Shown here: positions 3,073 to 12,649 of the stretch, one piece after another
How the letters are laid out: every line of letters begins with the position of its first letter
How positions within the stretch are numbered: position 1 is the first letter of the stretch
NCBI GenBank assembly: GCA_035304485.1
Contig: DATGPZ010000202.1
Location: forward strand, 1-62,500
Source: Acidimicrobiia bacterium
GTDB taxonomy: Bacteria; Actinomycetota; Acidimicrobiia; Spongiisociales; ZC4RG35
Length of the DNA: 62,500 nucleotides
Direction of reading: 5' to 3'
The notes under the pieces: generated by a model
The model's input: only the letters and a program-made list of their open reading frames with translations
The model's database searches: none
What the model was told of the DNA's origin: nothing
Position numbers and translations under genes: made by a program

Positions 3073-4700
3073 CCCGACGCGGTCCTGTGGGAGAGTCGAC
3101 GACCACCGCACCGGTTCTCGAACTGACGGGCGTGTCCCGTCAGTTCGGGGCGGTGCGGGCGTTGACCGATGTCAGCTTCGAATGCCGCGCCGGCGAGATC
3201 CATGCCCTCGTCGGCGAGAACGGATCGGGGAAGTCGACTCTCCTCGGGATCGCCTCCGGTTTCGTGGAACCGGACCGAGGCACCATCCACATCGGAGGAC
3301 AGCGCCTGCGGACGGACTCGCCCGCACTGGCCCGCAAGCTCGGGCTGGCGATGGCCTACCAGGACGGTTCCTCGGTCGGGATGGAACCGGTCAAGAACAA
3401 CTTCTATATGGCGGCGCCTCCTGGAAAACGCCCTCCGTACTGGCAGAGGAAGAAGTGGGCCCGGCGTCTATTGGCGGAGTTCGATCTCGACGTCGAGTTG
3501 TTCCCCGACGTGCCGGCAGGAATGCTCACGATGGCCGAGCGGCAGCTGTTCGAGGTGGCCAAGGCCCTCGTGACCGAACCGAAGGTGCTGCTCTTGGACG
3601 AGCCGACGACGGCCCTCGGTCCCGACGAGGTGGAAGCCCTTCATCGCACCATCTTGGCCTGCAAGGCCAAGGGCGTGGGCGTGGTCTATGTCAGCCATCG
3701 GCTCCCCGAGGTCCTCGAGGTGGCCGATCGGGTCACGGTGCTGCGGGACGGGCAGAACCAGGGAACGTTCGACGCCCGCACCACCACCGAGGCCGAGTTG
3801 GTGGAGCACATCGTGGGCCGGCCCTTCGAGGCCGCCTTCCCTCCCGCCCGGCCTTCGTTCGGCGAGCCGGAAGTGGTCCTGACGGTAGAAGGGCTCCAAG
3901 GCCAGTCATTCGGGCCGGTTTCCTTCGAGCTCCAGCGAGGTGAGATCGTCGGTGTGGCCGGGGCGGAAGGCAACGGCCAGCCGCAGTTGTTCGACTGCCT
4001 CGCCGGCCGGACGCCTCCGCGAGCCGGCCGGGTGGTCTGTGCCGGACGCGAACTGACCCTGGTGTCGACCCACGAACCGGTGGCGGCGGGGATGATGCTG
4101 CTGCCGGGAGACCGAAAACGTGAGGCACTGATGGGCGTGCTGGGCGTGCGGGTGAACGCCACCGTGCAGTCCCTGCGAAAGTTCACCTGGCTGGTTTTCC
4201 TGCGCCGTCGGACCGAGCGCCGCGCGGTGGACGACCTCGTCGAACGCCTGAAGATCCGCACACCGTCCCTCGAACAACCCGTCGAGTTCCTCTCCGGCGG
4301 AAACCAGCAGAAGGTGTCGGTGGCGAGGTCCTTCTTGAAGGAGCCCGCCGTCATACTCGCCTACGAGCCGACCCAGGGCGTCGACGTCGGGTCGCGGTTC
4401 GACATCTACGAGGCTCTCCGTGATCGCAGCGACGCCGGGGCCGCCATCCTCGTCAAGTCGAGCGATCCCATCGAGCTGTCCGGCCTGTGTGATCGGGTGC
4501 TGGTCATGTCGCGGGGAACGATCGTGGAAGAGATCCCCCGTGACGAACTCGACGAGGTCCGGATCGTCGAAGCGATCGTTCGCGGCCCGGGCATGTCCAA
4601 AGCCGCCCGATCCCCGCTCGGTGCCGCGATGCCGAAGGCGCCGTCGGCATCCAATGGCGACGCCGCGGTGCCACCGCGGGAAGGGAGCCATTCGACGTGA
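3069..4700 (+). CDS. ABC transporter ATP-binding protein with two fused ATPase domains (RbsA/MglA-like)
   Basis: Walker A GENGSGKST, Walker B LLLDEPT, a second signature LSGGNQQK and a second Walker B-like ILAYEPT. ATGA overlap with the binding-protein gene. Confidence 0.9.
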   Translation: MTRRGPVGESTTTAPVLELTGVSRQFGAVRALTDVSFECRAGEIHALVGENGSGKSTLLGIASGFVEPDRGTIHIGGQRLRTDSPALARKLGLAMAYQDGSSVGMEPVKNNFYMAAPPGKRPPYWQRKKWARRLLAEFDLDVELFPDVPAGMLTMAERQLFEVAKALVTEPKVLLLDEPTTALGPDEVEALHRTILACKAKGVGVVYVSHRLPEVLEVADRVTVLRDGQNQGTFDARTTTEAELVEHIVGRPFEAAFPPARPSFGEPEVVLTVEGLQGQSFGPVSFELQRGEIVGVAGAEGNGQPQLFDCLAGRTPPRAGRVVCAGRELTLVSTHEPVAAGMMLLPGDRKREALMGVLGVRVNATVQSLRKFTWLVFLRRRTERRAVDDLVERLKIRTPSLEQPVEFLSGGNQQKVSVARSFLKEPAVILAYEPTQGVDVGSRFDIYEALRDRSDAGAAILVKSSDPIELSGLCDRVLVMSRGTIVEEIPRDELDEVRIVEAIVRGPGMSKAARSPLGAAMPKAPSASNGDAAVPPREGSHST

Positions 4701-7165
4701 TCGAGCAGATCACCACCACCCGCGTCGACCGGGTTCGCCAGCTCGTGCGGAAGGTGGCGCGGAACGCGCGTGACAAGGAGAAGTGGCGCAAGGTCGTCCG
4801 GTTCCGCCTCTGGATGCCCGTGGCGCTCCAGATTCTCCTGATCGTGTTGCTCCTCGCCTATACGGGGTCACGTTTCCCCGGTTTCATCAACCAGGTCAAC
4901 GTCTACAACATCCTGCTCCTGGCCATGCCACTGGCGGTGGCCGCCATCGCCCAGACGCACGCCATCCTGGTCGGCTACCTCGACCTGTCGGTCGGGGCGA
5001 TGATCAGCTTCGGCGTCGTCGTCGCCTCCTTCCTCATCGGGTCGGAAGCCGGTGTCGGGCAGATCCTCCTGGGCATCGGCGCCATCCTCGGATGCGGCGC
5101 GATCCTCGGCCTGGTGAATGCCGGGCTGATTCGCGGAGTCAAGATCCCCTCGATCGTCGCCACCCTGGCCACTCTCTCGATCCTCGACGGCATCTCCCTC
5201 AGTCTCCGTCCCACCGCCCAGGGTGCCATCAGCTCCGATCTCGTCTCCGTTCTCACTGCGACGGTGGGGCCCGTGCCGATCGCCTTCGTCGTCATCGTGA
5301 TCGGAGCCGGGGTGCTCGACCTGTGGTTGCACGCCTCCGGATCGGGGTTGGCGGTGCGGGCTGTGGGCTTCGACGAGCGCTCCGCCAAGCGAGGAGGAAT
5401 TCGCACCAACTGGGTCCGGGTTCGGGCCCTGCTCATCGCATCGGTGCTCGCCGCGGTCGCCGCCTTCTTCGTCATGGCGAGATCCCCGATCGGCAACGCC
5501 CAGATCGGCGCTCCCTTCGCCCTCAACAGCATCACGGCCGCAGTCCTCGGCGGGGCCTCCCTGGCCGGCGGCCGGGCGACCTTCGTCGGCAGCACGGTCG
5601 CCTCGGTGCTCCTCGCACTGATAATCACGGTGCTTCCCTTCCTGGGACTCACCCCGACCGACGGATCCATGATCATCGGTGTCTTGGTCCTGTTGGGGAT
5701 CGTCCTCTTCCAGGCGGGGGATTTGAAGGAGCTGGTCAAGCGCAACTTCCGCCGCGCCCGCCGCCTGGTCCTGGGAAGCCGCATCGGAGAGCAAGCCCAG
5801 CTCCCCGCGTTCTACCCGGAAGGCACCGACTTCAACGTCGTGCCCACCAGCCGTCTGCTGATCCGAGGTGGCACGGTCCTCACGCTCGACGGCGAGCTCG
5901 GGGACATGCCGGGCGCCGACCTCTTGATCGAAGGGGACCGTATCGCAGCCATCCGACCCGGGATCGAGGCTGACGACGCGGAGGTGATCGACGCCACGGG
6001 AATGATCGTGATGCCCGGTTTCGTCGACACCCACCGCCATATCTGGGAGGGAGTCCTGCGCAACATAGGCACCGACGTGCCGCTGGAAGGGCGGACCAGC
6101 TACATCACCTTCGTCCTCCACAAGCTGGCTCCGGCCTTCCGGCCCGAAGACGCCTACCTCGGCAATCTCGTGTCGGCATTGGGAGCAATCGACGCCGGTA
6201 TCACCACTCTCCTCGACTGGTCCCACATCCAGGGCTCGCCCGCCCATACCGACGCCGTGGTCCAGGCCCTGAACGACTCGGGCATTCGGGCCGTGTTCGC
6301 CTACGGGTTCCCGTGGTGGGGCAAATGGGAGGAGCGTCAGCCGAGCTGGTTCGTACGCTGTGCCACCGAGCACTTCTCGAGCAAAGACCAGCGCCTCACC
6401 TTGGCCCTGGCGGCTCCCGGTCCCGAGTTCACCGACTTCGAGGTGGCCCGTGACCACTGGAAGCTGGCCCGGGAGGCCGGTGCCCGCATAACGACCCACG
6501 TCGGCGTCGGCAGCTACGGGCAGGACGGCAAGGTCCAGGAGATGGGGGAGGCAGGGCTGCTCGGCCCGGACACGACCTACATCCACTGCACCACGCTCAA
6601 CGACACCGAGATCCAGATGATCGTCGACAGCGGTGGGACGGTATCGATCGCCACTCCCGTGGAGATGATGATGGGACATGGGATGCCCCCGGTCCAGAAG
6701 TTCCTCGACCGAGGCCTCAAACCGAGTCTCAGCGTCGACGTCGAGACCAATGTGCCCTCCGACATGTTCAACCAGATGCGTTCCGTCCTCGGGTTGCAAC
6801 GTTCGCTGGCTCGCTCGGCCGGCAAGGATCCGGTCGGGATGCGGGAGGTGCTCGAGTGGGCCACGGTCGAGGGAGCCCGGGCCAACGGCCTGCTCGACCG
6901 CACCGGCACCCTGACGCCAGGAAAGCAAGCCGACGTGATCCTGTTGCGCACCGATCGGATGAACGTGACGCCGTTGCATGATCCCGTGGGAGCCGTGGTC
7001 ACCAGCATGGACACCGGAAACGTGGACACGGTGATCGTGGCCGGTCACGTCCTGAAACGGCACGGGAAGCTGTTGCACGTCGACTGGTCGACGGTGAGGC
7101 GGATGTCGGAGGAGTCACGGGACCATGTCCTGGACAAGTCCGGGTTCAAACCACCTCGGATCTGA
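4697..7165 (+). CDS. Fusion protein: N-terminal ABC permease (RbsC-like) plus C-terminal amidohydrolase/deaminase domain
   Basis: A single 822-codon ORF. Residues ~40-345 are polytopic and resemble 540..1571 (GGASLAGG block). Residues ~390-822 carry the metal-binding HxH motif FVDTHRHIWEG and TGTLTPGKQADVILL, paralogous to 1..543. GTGA overlap with the ATPase gene. Confidence 0.8.
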   Translation: MIEQITTTRVDRVRQLVRKVARNARDKEKWRKVVRFRLWMPVALQILLIVLLLAYTGSRFPGFINQVNVYNILLLAMPLAVAAIAQTHAILVGYLDLSVGAMISFGVVVASFLIGSEAGVGQILLGIGAILGCGAILGLVNAGLIRGVKIPSIVATLATLSILDGISLSLRPTAQGAISSDLVSVLTATVGPVPIAFVVIVIGAGVLDLWLHASGSGLAVRAVGFDERSAKRGGIRTNWVRVRALLIASVLAAVAAFFVMARSPIGNAQIGAPFALNSITAAVLGGASLAGGRATFVGSTVASVLLALIITVLPFLGLTPTDGSMIIGVLVLLGIVLFQAGDLKELVKRNFRRARRLVLGSRIGEQAQLPAFYPEGTDFNVVPTSRLLIRGGTVLTLDGELGDMPGADLLIEGDRIAAIRPGIEADDAEVIDATGMIVMPGFVDTHRHIWEGVLRNIGTDVPLEGRTSYITFVLHKLAPAFRPEDAYLGNLVSALGAIDAGITTLLDWSHIQGSPAHTDAVVQALNDSGIRAVFAYGFPWWGKWEERQPSWFVRCATEHFSSKDQRLTLALAAPGPEFTDFEVARDHWKLAREAGARITTHVGVGSYGQDGKVQEMGEAGLLGPDTTYIHCTTLNDTEIQMIVDSGGTVSIATPVEMMMGHGMPPVQKFLDRGLKPSLSVDVETNVPSDMFNQMRSVLGLQRSLARSAGKDPVGMREVLEWATVEGARANGLLDRTGTLTPGKQADVILLRTDRMNVTPLHDPVGAVVTSMDTGNVDTVIVAGHVLKRHGKLLHVDWSTVRRMSEESRDHVLDKSGFKPPRI

Positions 7166-10479: not shown

Positions 10480-11166
10480 GTGTGTGGGAGAGTCGGGATG
10501 AGGGGGTGGGCGCGGCTTTTAGGACCGTGGTGGCGGTGGTCGATCTTCGCCGTGGTGGTGTTGCCCGTCACCCTGGTGGCGTTGCGGGACCCGGTTCCGG
10601 CACTCGAGGTGTCGATATCGGAGTGGTTCCGAGGGCTCTCGTCGCCGACCTTGGACCCGCTGATGATGATGGCCGACACCGTGGGAAGCGTTGGCGTCAT
10701 CGGGGTCGGTGTGACCCTGGTAGTGGCTCTGCTCCTGCTCCGCGGCTCGTTGCGGGCGGCCCTGGCGCTGCTAGCCGCCGGGATCTCCGGCTATCTGGTG
10801 AACCTCGCCCTCAAATGGGCGATCGACCGGCCGCGTCCCAACGGACCCCAAGCCTGGGGCGGATATCCGAGCGGCCACATGCTGCTCACCACGGTCCTGG
10901 TCGTGTCGATGGTCCTCTTGATGCGTGCCTCCCGGTGGAGGAGGCTGGCAGGTGGGGCTGCTGCCGTCGTGCTCGCCGTGATGGGCTTCAGTCGCCTCTA
11001 CCTGGGAGAGCACTATCCGATCGACGTGGTAGGAGGGTTGGGGATCGGGCTCTCGATCGTCTGGGCCGCGGACCTGGCCATCGGATTCGACCGAGCATCC
11101 GCCACCGACGCCGTCAGCCCTCGTCCCGAAGACGCCAGATCTCCTCGGCGCGTTGGAACTCCGTGA
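10480..11166 (+). CDS. PAP2 superfamily phosphatase (membrane)
   Basis: The three PAP2 motifs are present: KWAIDRPRP, PSGH and SRLYLGEHYPIDVVGG. Confidence 0.8.
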   Translation: MCGRVGMRGWARLLGPWWRWSIFAVVVLPVTLVALRDPVPALEVSISEWFRGLSSPTLDPLMMMADTVGSVGVIGVGVTLVVALLLLRGSLRAALALLAAGISGYLVNLALKWAIDRPRPNGPQAWGGYPSGHMLLTTVLVVSMVLLMRASRWRRLAGGAAAVVLAVMGFSRLYLGEHYPIDVVGGLGIGLSIVWAADLAIGFDRASATDAVSPRPEDARSPRRVGTP

Positions 11167-11836
11167 GGGCACGAGGCCCGTTGCGGAGGAGGAGTCGATA
11201 GAACGCCGGGCGGTCGATGTCGCGGTACTCGACCTGTTCAGTGACATAGGGGCCGACAGTCCCCGAGGTCGGCCGATGGCGCCGTCCTTTCTCGAAGCGA
11301 TCCAGGAAGGCAGCGATGTTGCGGGCGCTGGTCCAATCCGATTTGTAGACGATCGTGCCACCCCGGGCGATCACCCAACTCATGTTCGGGAGCAGCCCAT
11401 AGGCATGATGGGCCGTTCCGTCCAGGTCGTCGACCAGGATCGTGCGGCGGATCCCGACCTCGTCGCGGAGCCGCCGGGCGGCGGCGAGCTTGGAAGCGAA
11501 GTCAGTGTGAGGCCCGACGATCTCCCCGGGGTGCGCCTCTCGGGTGTAGATGAAGAACCAAGCCAGGTCTGACCGATCCTGAGCCAGATCACACAGCAGA
11601 GGACCCTCTGCCGAGCAATACGGTCAAGTGAACGAGCCGAATTCCAGGACCACCGTCCGTTCAGCCCAGACCTCGGAGAGGTCCACCTGCGCCTCGTCGG
11701 CGAGGCGAACCGCGGTGAACGCAGGAGCGGGTTGGCCGGCGTGGAGGTGGTTCGGAAAAGCGGAGAACTCCTCCAATTCCCTGCCCGACTCTACGTATTC
11801 GTCGAACCGCTCGTAGTTGTAGGAGTCGACCTGCAT
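11114..11836 (-). CDS. Deiodinase-like thioredoxin-fold oxidoreductase with an in-frame TGA (candidate selenocysteine) at 11624..11626
   Basis: ORFs 11624..11836 and 11114..11383 share one frame, and the segment between them is open when translated by hand. The junction reads VVLEFGSFT-[TGA]-PYC, which is the FGSxT-U-P deiodinase signature plus a UxxC motif. A SECIS-like hairpin follows directly. Confidence 0.7.
11588..11619 (-). promoter_or_regulatory. Candidate bacterial SECIS hairpin immediately 3' of the in-frame UGA
   Basis: mRNA: UGACCGUAUUGCUCGGCAGAGGGUCCUCUGCUGUGUGAU. Upper stem is GCAGAG/CUCUGC (positions 16-21/26-31 from the U of UGA) with apical loop GGUC (22-25). The lower stem extends to A8-U39 with one U.U mismatch. 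Confidence 0.6.
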
Positions 11837-11862
11837 GGCGGTCGACTATACGACGGCATCCG

Positions 11863-12168
11863 TCAGGCGGGCGGTGCTTCCGGGTTCTGTGGGAGGAACA
11901 CGAACGAGAGACCCTGATCCCCGCTCTGGACGTCCATGATCGAATCGGACAGTGGCTCTGCCAGTATCGGGTCGAGATAGATCTCGGTGCCGGCGTGCTC
12001 GGCGCGGTGATCTGACGCATCGGCCGACTCCACGAACTCCAGCCGCAGGGCCAGATCTCCACTGGGCTGACGTTCCGCACTGATCCGTGTGTCGTGCCCT
12101 TCCGGGATTCCCTCGGCCTCACGGATCGACGCGAGAGCGGCGGCGGCGTTGTCTGACAATTTGAGCAA
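11863..12168 (-). CDS. HesB/IscA-like small protein (cysteine-less variant)
   Basis: 101 aa. The start MLKLSDNAAAALASI and the pattern LRLEFVES...EIYLDP...MDV resemble the IscA/HesB fold, but no Cys is present. It lies 26 nt upstream of the deiodinase-like gene on the same strand. Confidence 0.5.
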   Translation of the reverse strand: MLKLSDNAAAALASIREAEGIPEGHDTRISAERQPSGDLALRLEFVESADASDHRAEHAGTEIYLDPILAEPLSDSIMDVQSGDQGLSFVFLPQNPEAPPA

Positions 12169-12208
12169 TGCAGTTCCTTTCGCTGCTCCCTTCCAGCCTA
12201 GGCAGCGC

Positions 12209-12649
12209 TCAGGACTGTGCCACGGGACCGGTCTCGGCCAGATTCCAGTTGAACACCACGAACGGCTCCGGGTCTGCGGCTCCCGCCGCCCGGTAGGTGG
12301 CCGAGGCGGCGGCGTTGTCCGGGTCGACGCCTACCCACATCCCGTAGCAACCGCCTGCTCGGGCCACTTCTGCCAGGGCTCGCACCAGGGCAGTGCCGAT
12401 CCCCTGCCGACGATGGGCGGAGTCGACGCCCAGTTCGTAGAGGAACATCTCGGTCCCCTTGTCTGGATGGGTCGTTTCGACTCCCGACACGAAACCGACC
12501 GGACGATCGTCGTCCACCGCCAACAGGAGGTGATGCCCGGCAGCGTTCAGGAACCGTGAGGCCCATTCCGGGGTGGGAGGGTCGTCGAACAAGTGGGCGG
12601 CGTCGAGGATGCGTTGGTCGTCGCCGGATGAGAGCTTTTCGATTCGCAT
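12209..12649 (-). CDS. GNAT family N-acetyltransferase
   Basis: The acetyl-CoA motif RRQGIGTALVRAL is followed by the GNAT beta-strand pattern. The start is placed at MRIEKL. Confidence 0.8.
   Translation of the reverse strand: MRIEKLSSGDDQRILDAAHLFDDPPTPEWASRFLNAAGHHLLLAVDDDRPVGFVSGVETTHPDKGTEMFLYELGVDSAHRRQGIGTALVRALAEVARAGGCYGMWVGVDPDNAAASATYRAAGAADPEPFVVFNWNLAETGPVAQS

Follow-up and report, generated by a model that had tools for sequence, protein, structure and literature searches.

The minimal selenocysteine insertion sequence (SECIS) of Escherichia coli comprises nucleotides (nt) 15-31, lies 11 nt from the UGA codon, has a bulged U17 and carries G23 and U24 in its apical loop (PMC8659212). 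The criteria in use for bacterial SECIS elements in general (bSECIS) are a loop of 3-9 nt, a stem of 4-16 base pairs (bp), a G in the first two loop positions, a spacing of 16-37 nt between the UGA and the loop and a minimum free energy (MFE) of −7.5 kcal/mol or lower; the loop usually starts with G, followed by G or U (PMC13188914). Deiodinase-like selenoproteins of bacteria were found in 2005 in the Sargasso Sea metagenome, in selenocysteine (Sec) and cysteine (Cys) forms and with a bacterial SECIS, and bacteria are not expected to have thyroid hormones as substrates (PMC1088965). A 2026 review lists the deiodinase-like family PF00837 with the motif UxxC (PMC13188914).

Here we describe a hairpin located directly 3′ of an in-frame UGA on the minus strand of contig DATGPZ010000202.1, from an Acidimicrobiia bacterium. 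The whole stretch of DNA analyzed (positions 1 to 62,500 of the contig, hereafter the window) is 62.5 kb long, with a guanine plus cytosine (G+C) content of 66% and 1419 TGA triplets. Judged from sequence and comparative evidence, the hairpin is very probably a functional bacterial SECIS, by which the UGA would be decoded as Sec in a deiodinase-like redox protein of the UxxC type. An earlier reading of the same DNA by a model (the original prediction) had proposed Sec decoding, and this interpretation is supported by the conservation of the UGA, by selection at the nucleotide level, by compensatory changes in the stem and by an fdhF-like register of the loop. The mRNA is numbered throughout with the U of the UGA as nt 1.

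Gene, UGA codon and homologues

The features of the predicted gene and of its hairpin are the following:

11114..11836, minus strand: deiodinase-like selenoprotein gene, with its ATG at 11836 and its true stop TGA at 11116-11114, 240 codons
11624..11626, minus strand: in-frame UGA, codon 71, predicted to be read as Sec, with TGA in 83/83 loci
11617..11615, minus strand: TGC codon of the resolving Cys in the UxxC motif
11613..11623, minus strand: spacer and 5′ side of the lower stem, nt 4-14, encoding Pro-Tyr-Cys of the UxxC motif
11595..11612, minus strand: conserved SECIS core, nt 15-32, supported by RNAfold, pair counts in orthologues and codon constraint, with the stem pairs G15.U32, G16-C31, C17-G30, A18-U29, G19-C28, A20-U27 and G21-C26
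11605..11602, minus strand: tetraloop G22 G23 U24 C25, capping the core stem
11588..11594, minus strand: 3′ side of the lower stem, nt 33-39, pairing with nt 8-14 (11613..11619) in the window and its closest relatives only

In translation, the frame is open for 70 codons before the UGA and for 169 codons after it, with this single internal TGA, and the active-site motif is FGSFT-U-PYC (UxxC). The read-through protein matched the Pfam family T4_deiodinase (PF00837) with 42.7 bits (cut-off 27, E = 5e-11, residues 29-166) and also matched Redoxin and AhpC-TSA; the Pfam matches extend across the UGA position. Its best matches among the PDB sequences were mouse Dio3 (4TR3), in an alignment covering residues 28-181, and a Dio2 structure. 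The FGSFT-U-P of the window aligns on FGSCT-C-P and FGSAT-C-P of the Dio structures, where the aligned Cys occupies the catalytic Sec position, mutated to Cys in those constructs. In this alignment, the UGA corresponds to the catalytic Sec/Cys of deiodinases. There is no reassignment of the genetic code, since most genes in the window use TGA as a stop in the usual way.

A protein search yielded 593 homologues. Among the 120 matches listed, 116 were "hypothetical proteins" of 132-165 residues that start downstream of the UGA and span only the C-terminal 55-68% of the query. Since these fragments begin after the UGA, the gene callers must have restarted past a stop. The databases routinely cut these selenoprotein genes short at the UGA, and the active site and first 70 residues of an apparently widespread soil-bacterial redox enzyme are absent from public annotation. 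Three full-length homologues were found among the matches listed, namely P0003, with Cys at the Sec position (FGSFTCPYC), and P0001 and P0006, both with W. The W of the last two probably stems from gene prediction under a code in which TGA means Trp. The clade also has a conserved C-terminal extension of about 60 residues (TEQVE.RD.D...NGPRA..EF..AE) beyond the deiodinase domain.

At the DNA level, 84 related loci were collected (80 from metagenomes, one from a Binatia metagenome-assembled genome (MAG) and three through exact protein look-up), and 83 of them contain the site, L072 beginning downstream of it. TGA was present at the homologous codon in all 83, with the frame open on both sides and a protein identity of 36-68%, and none of them had TGG there. 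Three orthologue loci added later (L088, L089 and L091) have the TGA and the hairpin too. A scan of genome contigs gave one distant relative only, L001, in the Binatia MAG. Its protein is 36% identical and has the motif GSVT-U-PPF, and although the peptide encoded after the UGA is different, a hairpin of 8 bp is still formed, its GGU loop lying at nt 21-23.

The Cys-form homologue (P0003, locus L085) has TGC at the Sec codon. Its loop letters are AGCC, two stem pairs are broken and the predicted fold does not contain the hairpin; these statements are based on base identities and on the MFE fold, the energies of an imposed structure having been discarded as unreliable because of non-canonical pairs. 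Such a pairing of UxxC with CxxC in a Cys homologue is a selenoprotein hallmark.

Fold and conservation of the hairpin

The minus strand from 11626 to 11588 reads UGACCGUAUUGCUCGGCAGAGGGUCCUCUGCUGUGUGAU. RNAfold paired nt 8-12 with 35-39 and nt 14-21 with 26-33, leaving U13 and U34 unpaired and G22 G23 U24 C25 as the loop, with an energy of −15.9 kcal/mol and a share of 64% of the ensemble. This reproduces exactly the sequence and the list of pairs given in the original prediction. The core of the hairpin encodes Ala-Glu-Gly-Pro-Leu. With a loop of 4 nt, 8 contiguous pairs (6-7 of them conserved in 49 orthologous sequences), a spacing of 18 nt (nt 4-21) and the above energy, the hairpin falls within all the bSECIS limits.

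The original prediction had likened the register of the loop to that of E. coli fdhF. A 42-nt fdhF query was found with at least 99% identity in 5413 E. coli records, the matches listed being 100% identical and lying under annotated fdhF genes described as "selenocysteine-containing", so the fdhF sequence given there was correct. The GGUC of fdhF lies at nt 22-25, which places G23 and U24 at the same distance from the UGA as in the window, as had been claimed.

The codons of the loop and 3′ arm are practically frozen. In a codon alignment of 77 distinct genes they were GAG (77/77), GGT (75/76), CCT (76/77) and CTG (73/74), while outside the element GGT accounts for 10% of the Gly codons and CCT for 5% of the Pro codons of the same genes. 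Synonymous entropy was computed in 52 conserved columns of four-fold or higher degeneracy, leaving out the distant L001. The three lowest values corresponded to columns +8 (CCT, 100%), +7 (GGT, 99%) and +9 (CTG, 99%), and entropy at codons +6 to +9 was lower than in the columns outside the element (Mann-Whitney p = 6e-4). Only four of the 52 columns (−1, +5, +7 and +8) had a dominant codon ending in A or T. Peptide conservation cannot produce this pattern of frozen rare codons, which points to selection acting at the nucleotide level. Column −1 is the Thr codon before the UGA (11627-11629, minus strand), which is ACT in 47 of the 77 genes and ACC in the other 30; the bias toward ACT may reflect a preferred context (U ahead of the UGA) that does not belong to the hairpin.

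Base pairs were counted in 49 distinct sequences of 48 nt (alignment A2). In the loop, G22 and G23 were invariant, and U24, like the complete GGUC, was found in 48 of the 49. The sole orthologue with a GGCC loop (Gly codon GGC) is L024:254-301, where the U24-to-C change is either a variant that is tolerated or an error of sequencing. Pairs 16-31 to 21-26 were formed in 48-49 sequences, and pair 15-32 in most of them. Pairs 19-28, 20-27 and 21-26 did not vary, while 16-31 was formed in 48/49. Pair 17-30 was C-G in 47 sequences, with U-A in L005 and U-G in one other; at pair 18-29, 30 sequences had A-U, 17 had G-U and the remaining two, L009 and L082, had U-A. On the 5′ side of pair 18-29 the change in L009 is synonymous (Ala, GCA to GCT), but on the 3′ side it replaces Leu with Gln (CTG to CAG), so this locus keeps the base pair at the expense of an amino acid. 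In 500 shuffles, neither the covariation score nor the count of pairs with changes on both sides was ever as high as in the real alignment; slid controls gave lower values.

The hairpin, whose conserved stem starts 11-12 nt past the UGA, is therefore conserved in the orthologues carrying TGA, with synonymous variation suppressed, and the compensatory changes that would be expected of a selected stem were found at 17-30 and 18-29. The original prediction had described a hairpin of about 32 nt. Its upper stem and loop are conserved, but the lower stem is not, as pairs 8-39, 9-38, 12-35 and 14-33 were formed in only 3-7 of the 49 sequences; other clades have lower helices in other registers.

Points against the Sec reading and alternative explanations

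Several results weigh against Sec decoding at this UGA and have to be considered together, beginning with folding energy. The hairpin of the window had z = −2.47 against dinucleotide shuffles, 4 of 200 folding as well. When synonymous codons were resampled according to the codon usage of the family, 12% of the recodings folded at least as well (z = −1.2). The expectation that the energy would be better than that of codon-shuffled controls was thus not borne out, and folding energy was dropped as evidence (p ~0.12), because in a G+C-rich gene an energy that 12% of synonymous recodings equal is no evidence on its own. Likewise, 310 of the 1419 TGA triplets of the window (22%) pass the generic bSECIS criteria, and therefore passing them carries little weight. 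What speaks for a SECIS is not the energy but the conservation of nucleotides and the use of rare codons. A GGUC at nt 22-25 on top of six or more contiguous pairs, a more specific configuration, occurs at one of the 1419 triplets, namely this site, with 8 pairs, and the next-best triplet has 4. TGA, 18 nt and then GGTC flanked by at least six pairs could hence serve as a sequence marker, its specificity in the window being one hit, compared with the 310 generic ones.

On the same side, no Rfam family, SECIS or other, reached its gathering threshold in the whole window, nor did Rfam return any SECIS family or anything covering the hairpin in the 301 nt of 11450-11750 at E up to 10. A search with SECIS covariance models, put forward in the original prediction as a check, accordingly gave no match; the hairpin is too short and lineage-specific for the Rfam SECIS models. 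Among the 49 sequences many are closely related, so the pair counts overstate how many events were independent. The comparison with the Cys form consists of a single sequence, L085. Finally, the bulged U17 that E. coli SelB needs is missing, since C17 pairs with G30, and 17-30 is a canonical pair in all 49 orthologue sequences.

Other matches around the site were discarded. A sub-threshold Rfam match to Glutamine-II (11671-11724, minus strand, 16.9 bits vs. a cut-off of 33, E = 0.05 in the 301-nt search), within the N-terminal coding part of the selenoprotein gene, is most likely due to chance, and snoRNA-type matches were treated as noise. An intrinsic terminator was ruled out, as there is no terminator-like site in 10900-12400 and no U-run after the stem.

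An unexceptional MFE and the frequency with which TGA triplets of the window pass the generic criteria are what would be expected if the TGA were a genuine stop or a pseudogene lesion, with the hairpin incidental to a conserved Ala-Glu-Gly-Pro-Leu-Leu peptide in a G+C-rich gene, and in over 100 homologues the gene callers did take the TGA for a stop. We consider this extremely improbable. The TGA is kept in every locus that contains the site with the frame open on both sides, the Pfam and PDB alignments run across it, and one homologue has Cys at that codon. Moreover, peptide conservation does not explain why the synonymous sites of the hairpin are frozen on rare codons, nor why a nonsynonymous Leu-to-Gln change preserves a base pair.

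The conserved nucleotides might instead serve another fold, whose position is:

11602-11625, minus strand, mRNA nt 2-25: competing fold, from the RNAalifold consensus

In this structure, G2-A3-C4-C5 would pair with G22-G23-U24-C25 and nt 9-12 with nt 16-19, sequestering the UGA, perhaps as a regulatory switch in competition with the SECIS. It is a further point against Sec decoding that this fold is the RNAalifold consensus on A2 (−9.8 kcal/mol, 9 pairs), that nearly all sequences can form it, and that it is the single-sequence MFE structure in about a dozen orthologues. Its covariation term, however, is only −0.4, without any pair changed on both sides, and its GACC arm is fixed anyway by the UGA and the Pro codon. 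The A18-to-U variants of L009 and L082 break its 10-18 pair and yet are compensated in the SECIS hairpin, which is also the predominant structure in the ensemble of the window. We therefore rejected it as a functional structure; a role of this kind is highly improbable, and the fold is probably an incidental by-product.

Concerning the Sec machinery, ARAGORN detected no tRNA gene in the 62.5 kb window, and so no tRNA-Sec, and Pfam revealed no SelA, SelB or SelD in about 53 open reading frames (ORFs) of the window. These absences complete the points against the proposed SECIS. With E. coli SelA, SelB and SelD as queries, tblastn gave no match in the window or in any fetched locus. As the sel genes are absent from the window, the Sec competence of the source organism is putative.

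Related loci provide support of an indirect kind. In L004, an orthologue of 68% identity (4001-4693) with the same TGA and hairpin has a divergent tRNA-Sec gene 50 nt upstream (L004:3855-3950, minus strand), with the anticodon TCA according to ARAGORN and 70.4 bits for Rfam RF01852 (cut-off 47); no selA, selB or selD was present in the 8.7 kb fetched for this locus. In addition, L003 and L089-L093 have a GrdB-family gene (PF07355) adjoining the orthologue or one gene beyond. It is split by an in-frame TGA (LVAT-U-PVCHG) and was called as two ORFs (230 + 68 aa). Its coordinates are:

L089:10517-11479, the same in L090: GrdB-family gene
L091:11665-12636: GrdB-family gene
L003:2899-3807: GrdB-family gene
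L092 and L093: GrdB-family gene, also present

In L089 and L091 a hairpin comes after the TGA of this gene, and its GGUCG loop, at nt 21-25, nearly repeats the loop and register of the deiodinase-like SECIS. The predicted fold of the L003 copy lacks the GGUCG hairpin. The window has no copy of the GrdB-family gene.

These results bear on the possibility that the hairpin stimulates readthrough or recoding without SelB and Sec-tRNA(Sec), for example by near-cognate insertion of Trp or Cys or as a stop-readthrough signal. UGA terminates weakly when the next nucleotide is C, no Sec machinery was found in the window, and the database entries P0001 and P0006 have W at the UGA position. Nevertheless, these W entries probably derive from gene calling with an alternative code, as TGA is found in 83/83 loci and TGG in none. 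The position is that of the catalytic Sec/Cys of the fold, with UxxC paired to CxxC in the Cys homologue, and loop and spacing match the determinants of SelB binding. Furthermore, a tRNA-Sec gene adjoins one orthologue, and next to others there is another gene with an in-frame TGA, belonging to a known family of selenoproteins. In attention to all this, readthrough without Sec is very unlikely, and we retain the decoding of the UGA as Sec.

Regarding the surroundings of these genes, thiol-redox genes are abundant in L089 and L090 (1-15000) and in the neighbourhoods of L091-L093. Across L089-L093 the neighbours include two flavoprotein disulfide reductases (Pyr_redox_2/Pyr_redox_dim), DSBA, AhpC-TSA/Redoxin and FMN_red, as well as an ECF sigma factor with a zf-HC2 anti-sigma factor. 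Such neighbourhoods fit a redox role for the UxxC protein, although the neighbours in the window are different (PAP2, GNAT, an ECF-type sigma factor and MarR). A 101-codon ORF at 11863-12168 (minus strand), 26 nt upstream of the selenoprotein gene and on the same strand, gave no Pfam match at E up to 0.01 and may be co-transcribed with it. Elsewhere in the window, 4544-7162 (plus strand) is a stop-free frame of 873 codons with a BPD_transp_2 permease (residues 120-383) and Amidohydro_1 (488-836), corresponding either to two genes in the same frame without an intervening stop or to a fusion. A scan for in-frame TGA between coding-like segments gave no second convincing selenoprotein candidate in the window.

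Comparison with described selenoprotein systems

In structures of SelB-SECIS complexes, the C-terminal winged-helix domains of SelB bind the G and U of the loop. By analogy with E. coli fdhF, the stem of 6-7 bp with its GGUC tetraloop (nt 15-32) would be bound as the ribosome nears the UGA, with those domains contacting G23 and U24. The bound SelB would carry Sec-tRNA(Sec) and GTP, and the spacer of about 11 nt would set the Sec-tRNA(Sec) at the A site, where the UGA would be decoded as Sec in competition with release factor 2, which it would outcompete. The ribosome would then melt the hairpin and translate it as the peptide indicated above. For the source organism, we infer SelB binding and selenium incorporation from this analogy.

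The presence of a GGUC-type loop both in the deiodinase-like gene and in the GrdB-family gene of orthologous loci raises the possibility, which we put forward only tentatively and consider rather doubtful, that such a loop at about nt 21-25 from the UGA is a common SelB signal for unrelated selenoprotein genes in high-G+C soil bacteria. If this were true, phyla that are very far apart would share the E. coli code of G23/U24 plus spacing in the absence of the bulged U17, E. coli SelB might be able to decode these genes, and a rule of loop plus register could recover many selenoprotein genes that are truncated in soil metagenome annotation. The window also offers a natural case in which the loop and spacing of fdhF are kept and the bulged U is absent, bearing on the universality of the SelB-SECIS recognition code. 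In the same regard, the GGCC loop of L024 is a natural test case for the requirement of U24.

With respect to the systems already described, the SECIS families of Rfam belong to the same functional class, but no model covers the hairpin of the window. The animal deiodinases (Dio1-3; 4TR3, 9H48) share with the window protein a thioredoxin-like fold and the FGS-x-T-U-P motif, aligned column for column including Sec. They differ in using a eukaryotic SECIS in the 3′ untranslated region instead of a hairpin in the coding region, and in having U-P-P-F, without a resolving Cys three residues on, where the window has U-P-Y-C, a UxxC of redox type. The bacterial deiodinase-like family has in common with the window the PF00837 match, the UxxC motif, the existence of Sec and Cys forms and a bacterial-type SECIS directly after the UGA, with G in its small apical loop. 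Whereas its Sargasso Sea members are marine, the genes studied here were found on high-G+C contigs and in metagenomes of soil and terrestrial origin, and the conserved C-terminal extension sets them apart from that description.

It must be noted, in consequence, that this is not a new kind of system, but a bacterial SECIS in an already known family of deiodinase-like UxxC proteins. What makes it worth recording is the abundance of the clade and its uniform truncation in the databases, the exact fdhF register of the loop and the GGUC-type loop common to the GrdB-family neighbour.

A close counterpart of the RNA element is that of E. coli fdhF, which is also a coding-region hairpin directly 3′ of an in-frame UGA, with the GGUC tetraloop at nt 22-25 and a minimal upper hairpin at nt 15-31, 11 nt past the UGA; as in fdhF, the lower helix of the window can reach back to the UGA itself. 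The stem sequences are unrelated, and the closing pair is G-C here and A-U in fdhF. The host is a bacterium of 66% G+C instead of an enterobacterium, and the element encodes AEGPLL of a thioredoxin-fold protein and not part of a molybdopterin enzyme. Because the bulged U17 is absent, we do not file the element as strictly "fdhF-type", but as a bacterial SECIS that would work like that of fdhF.

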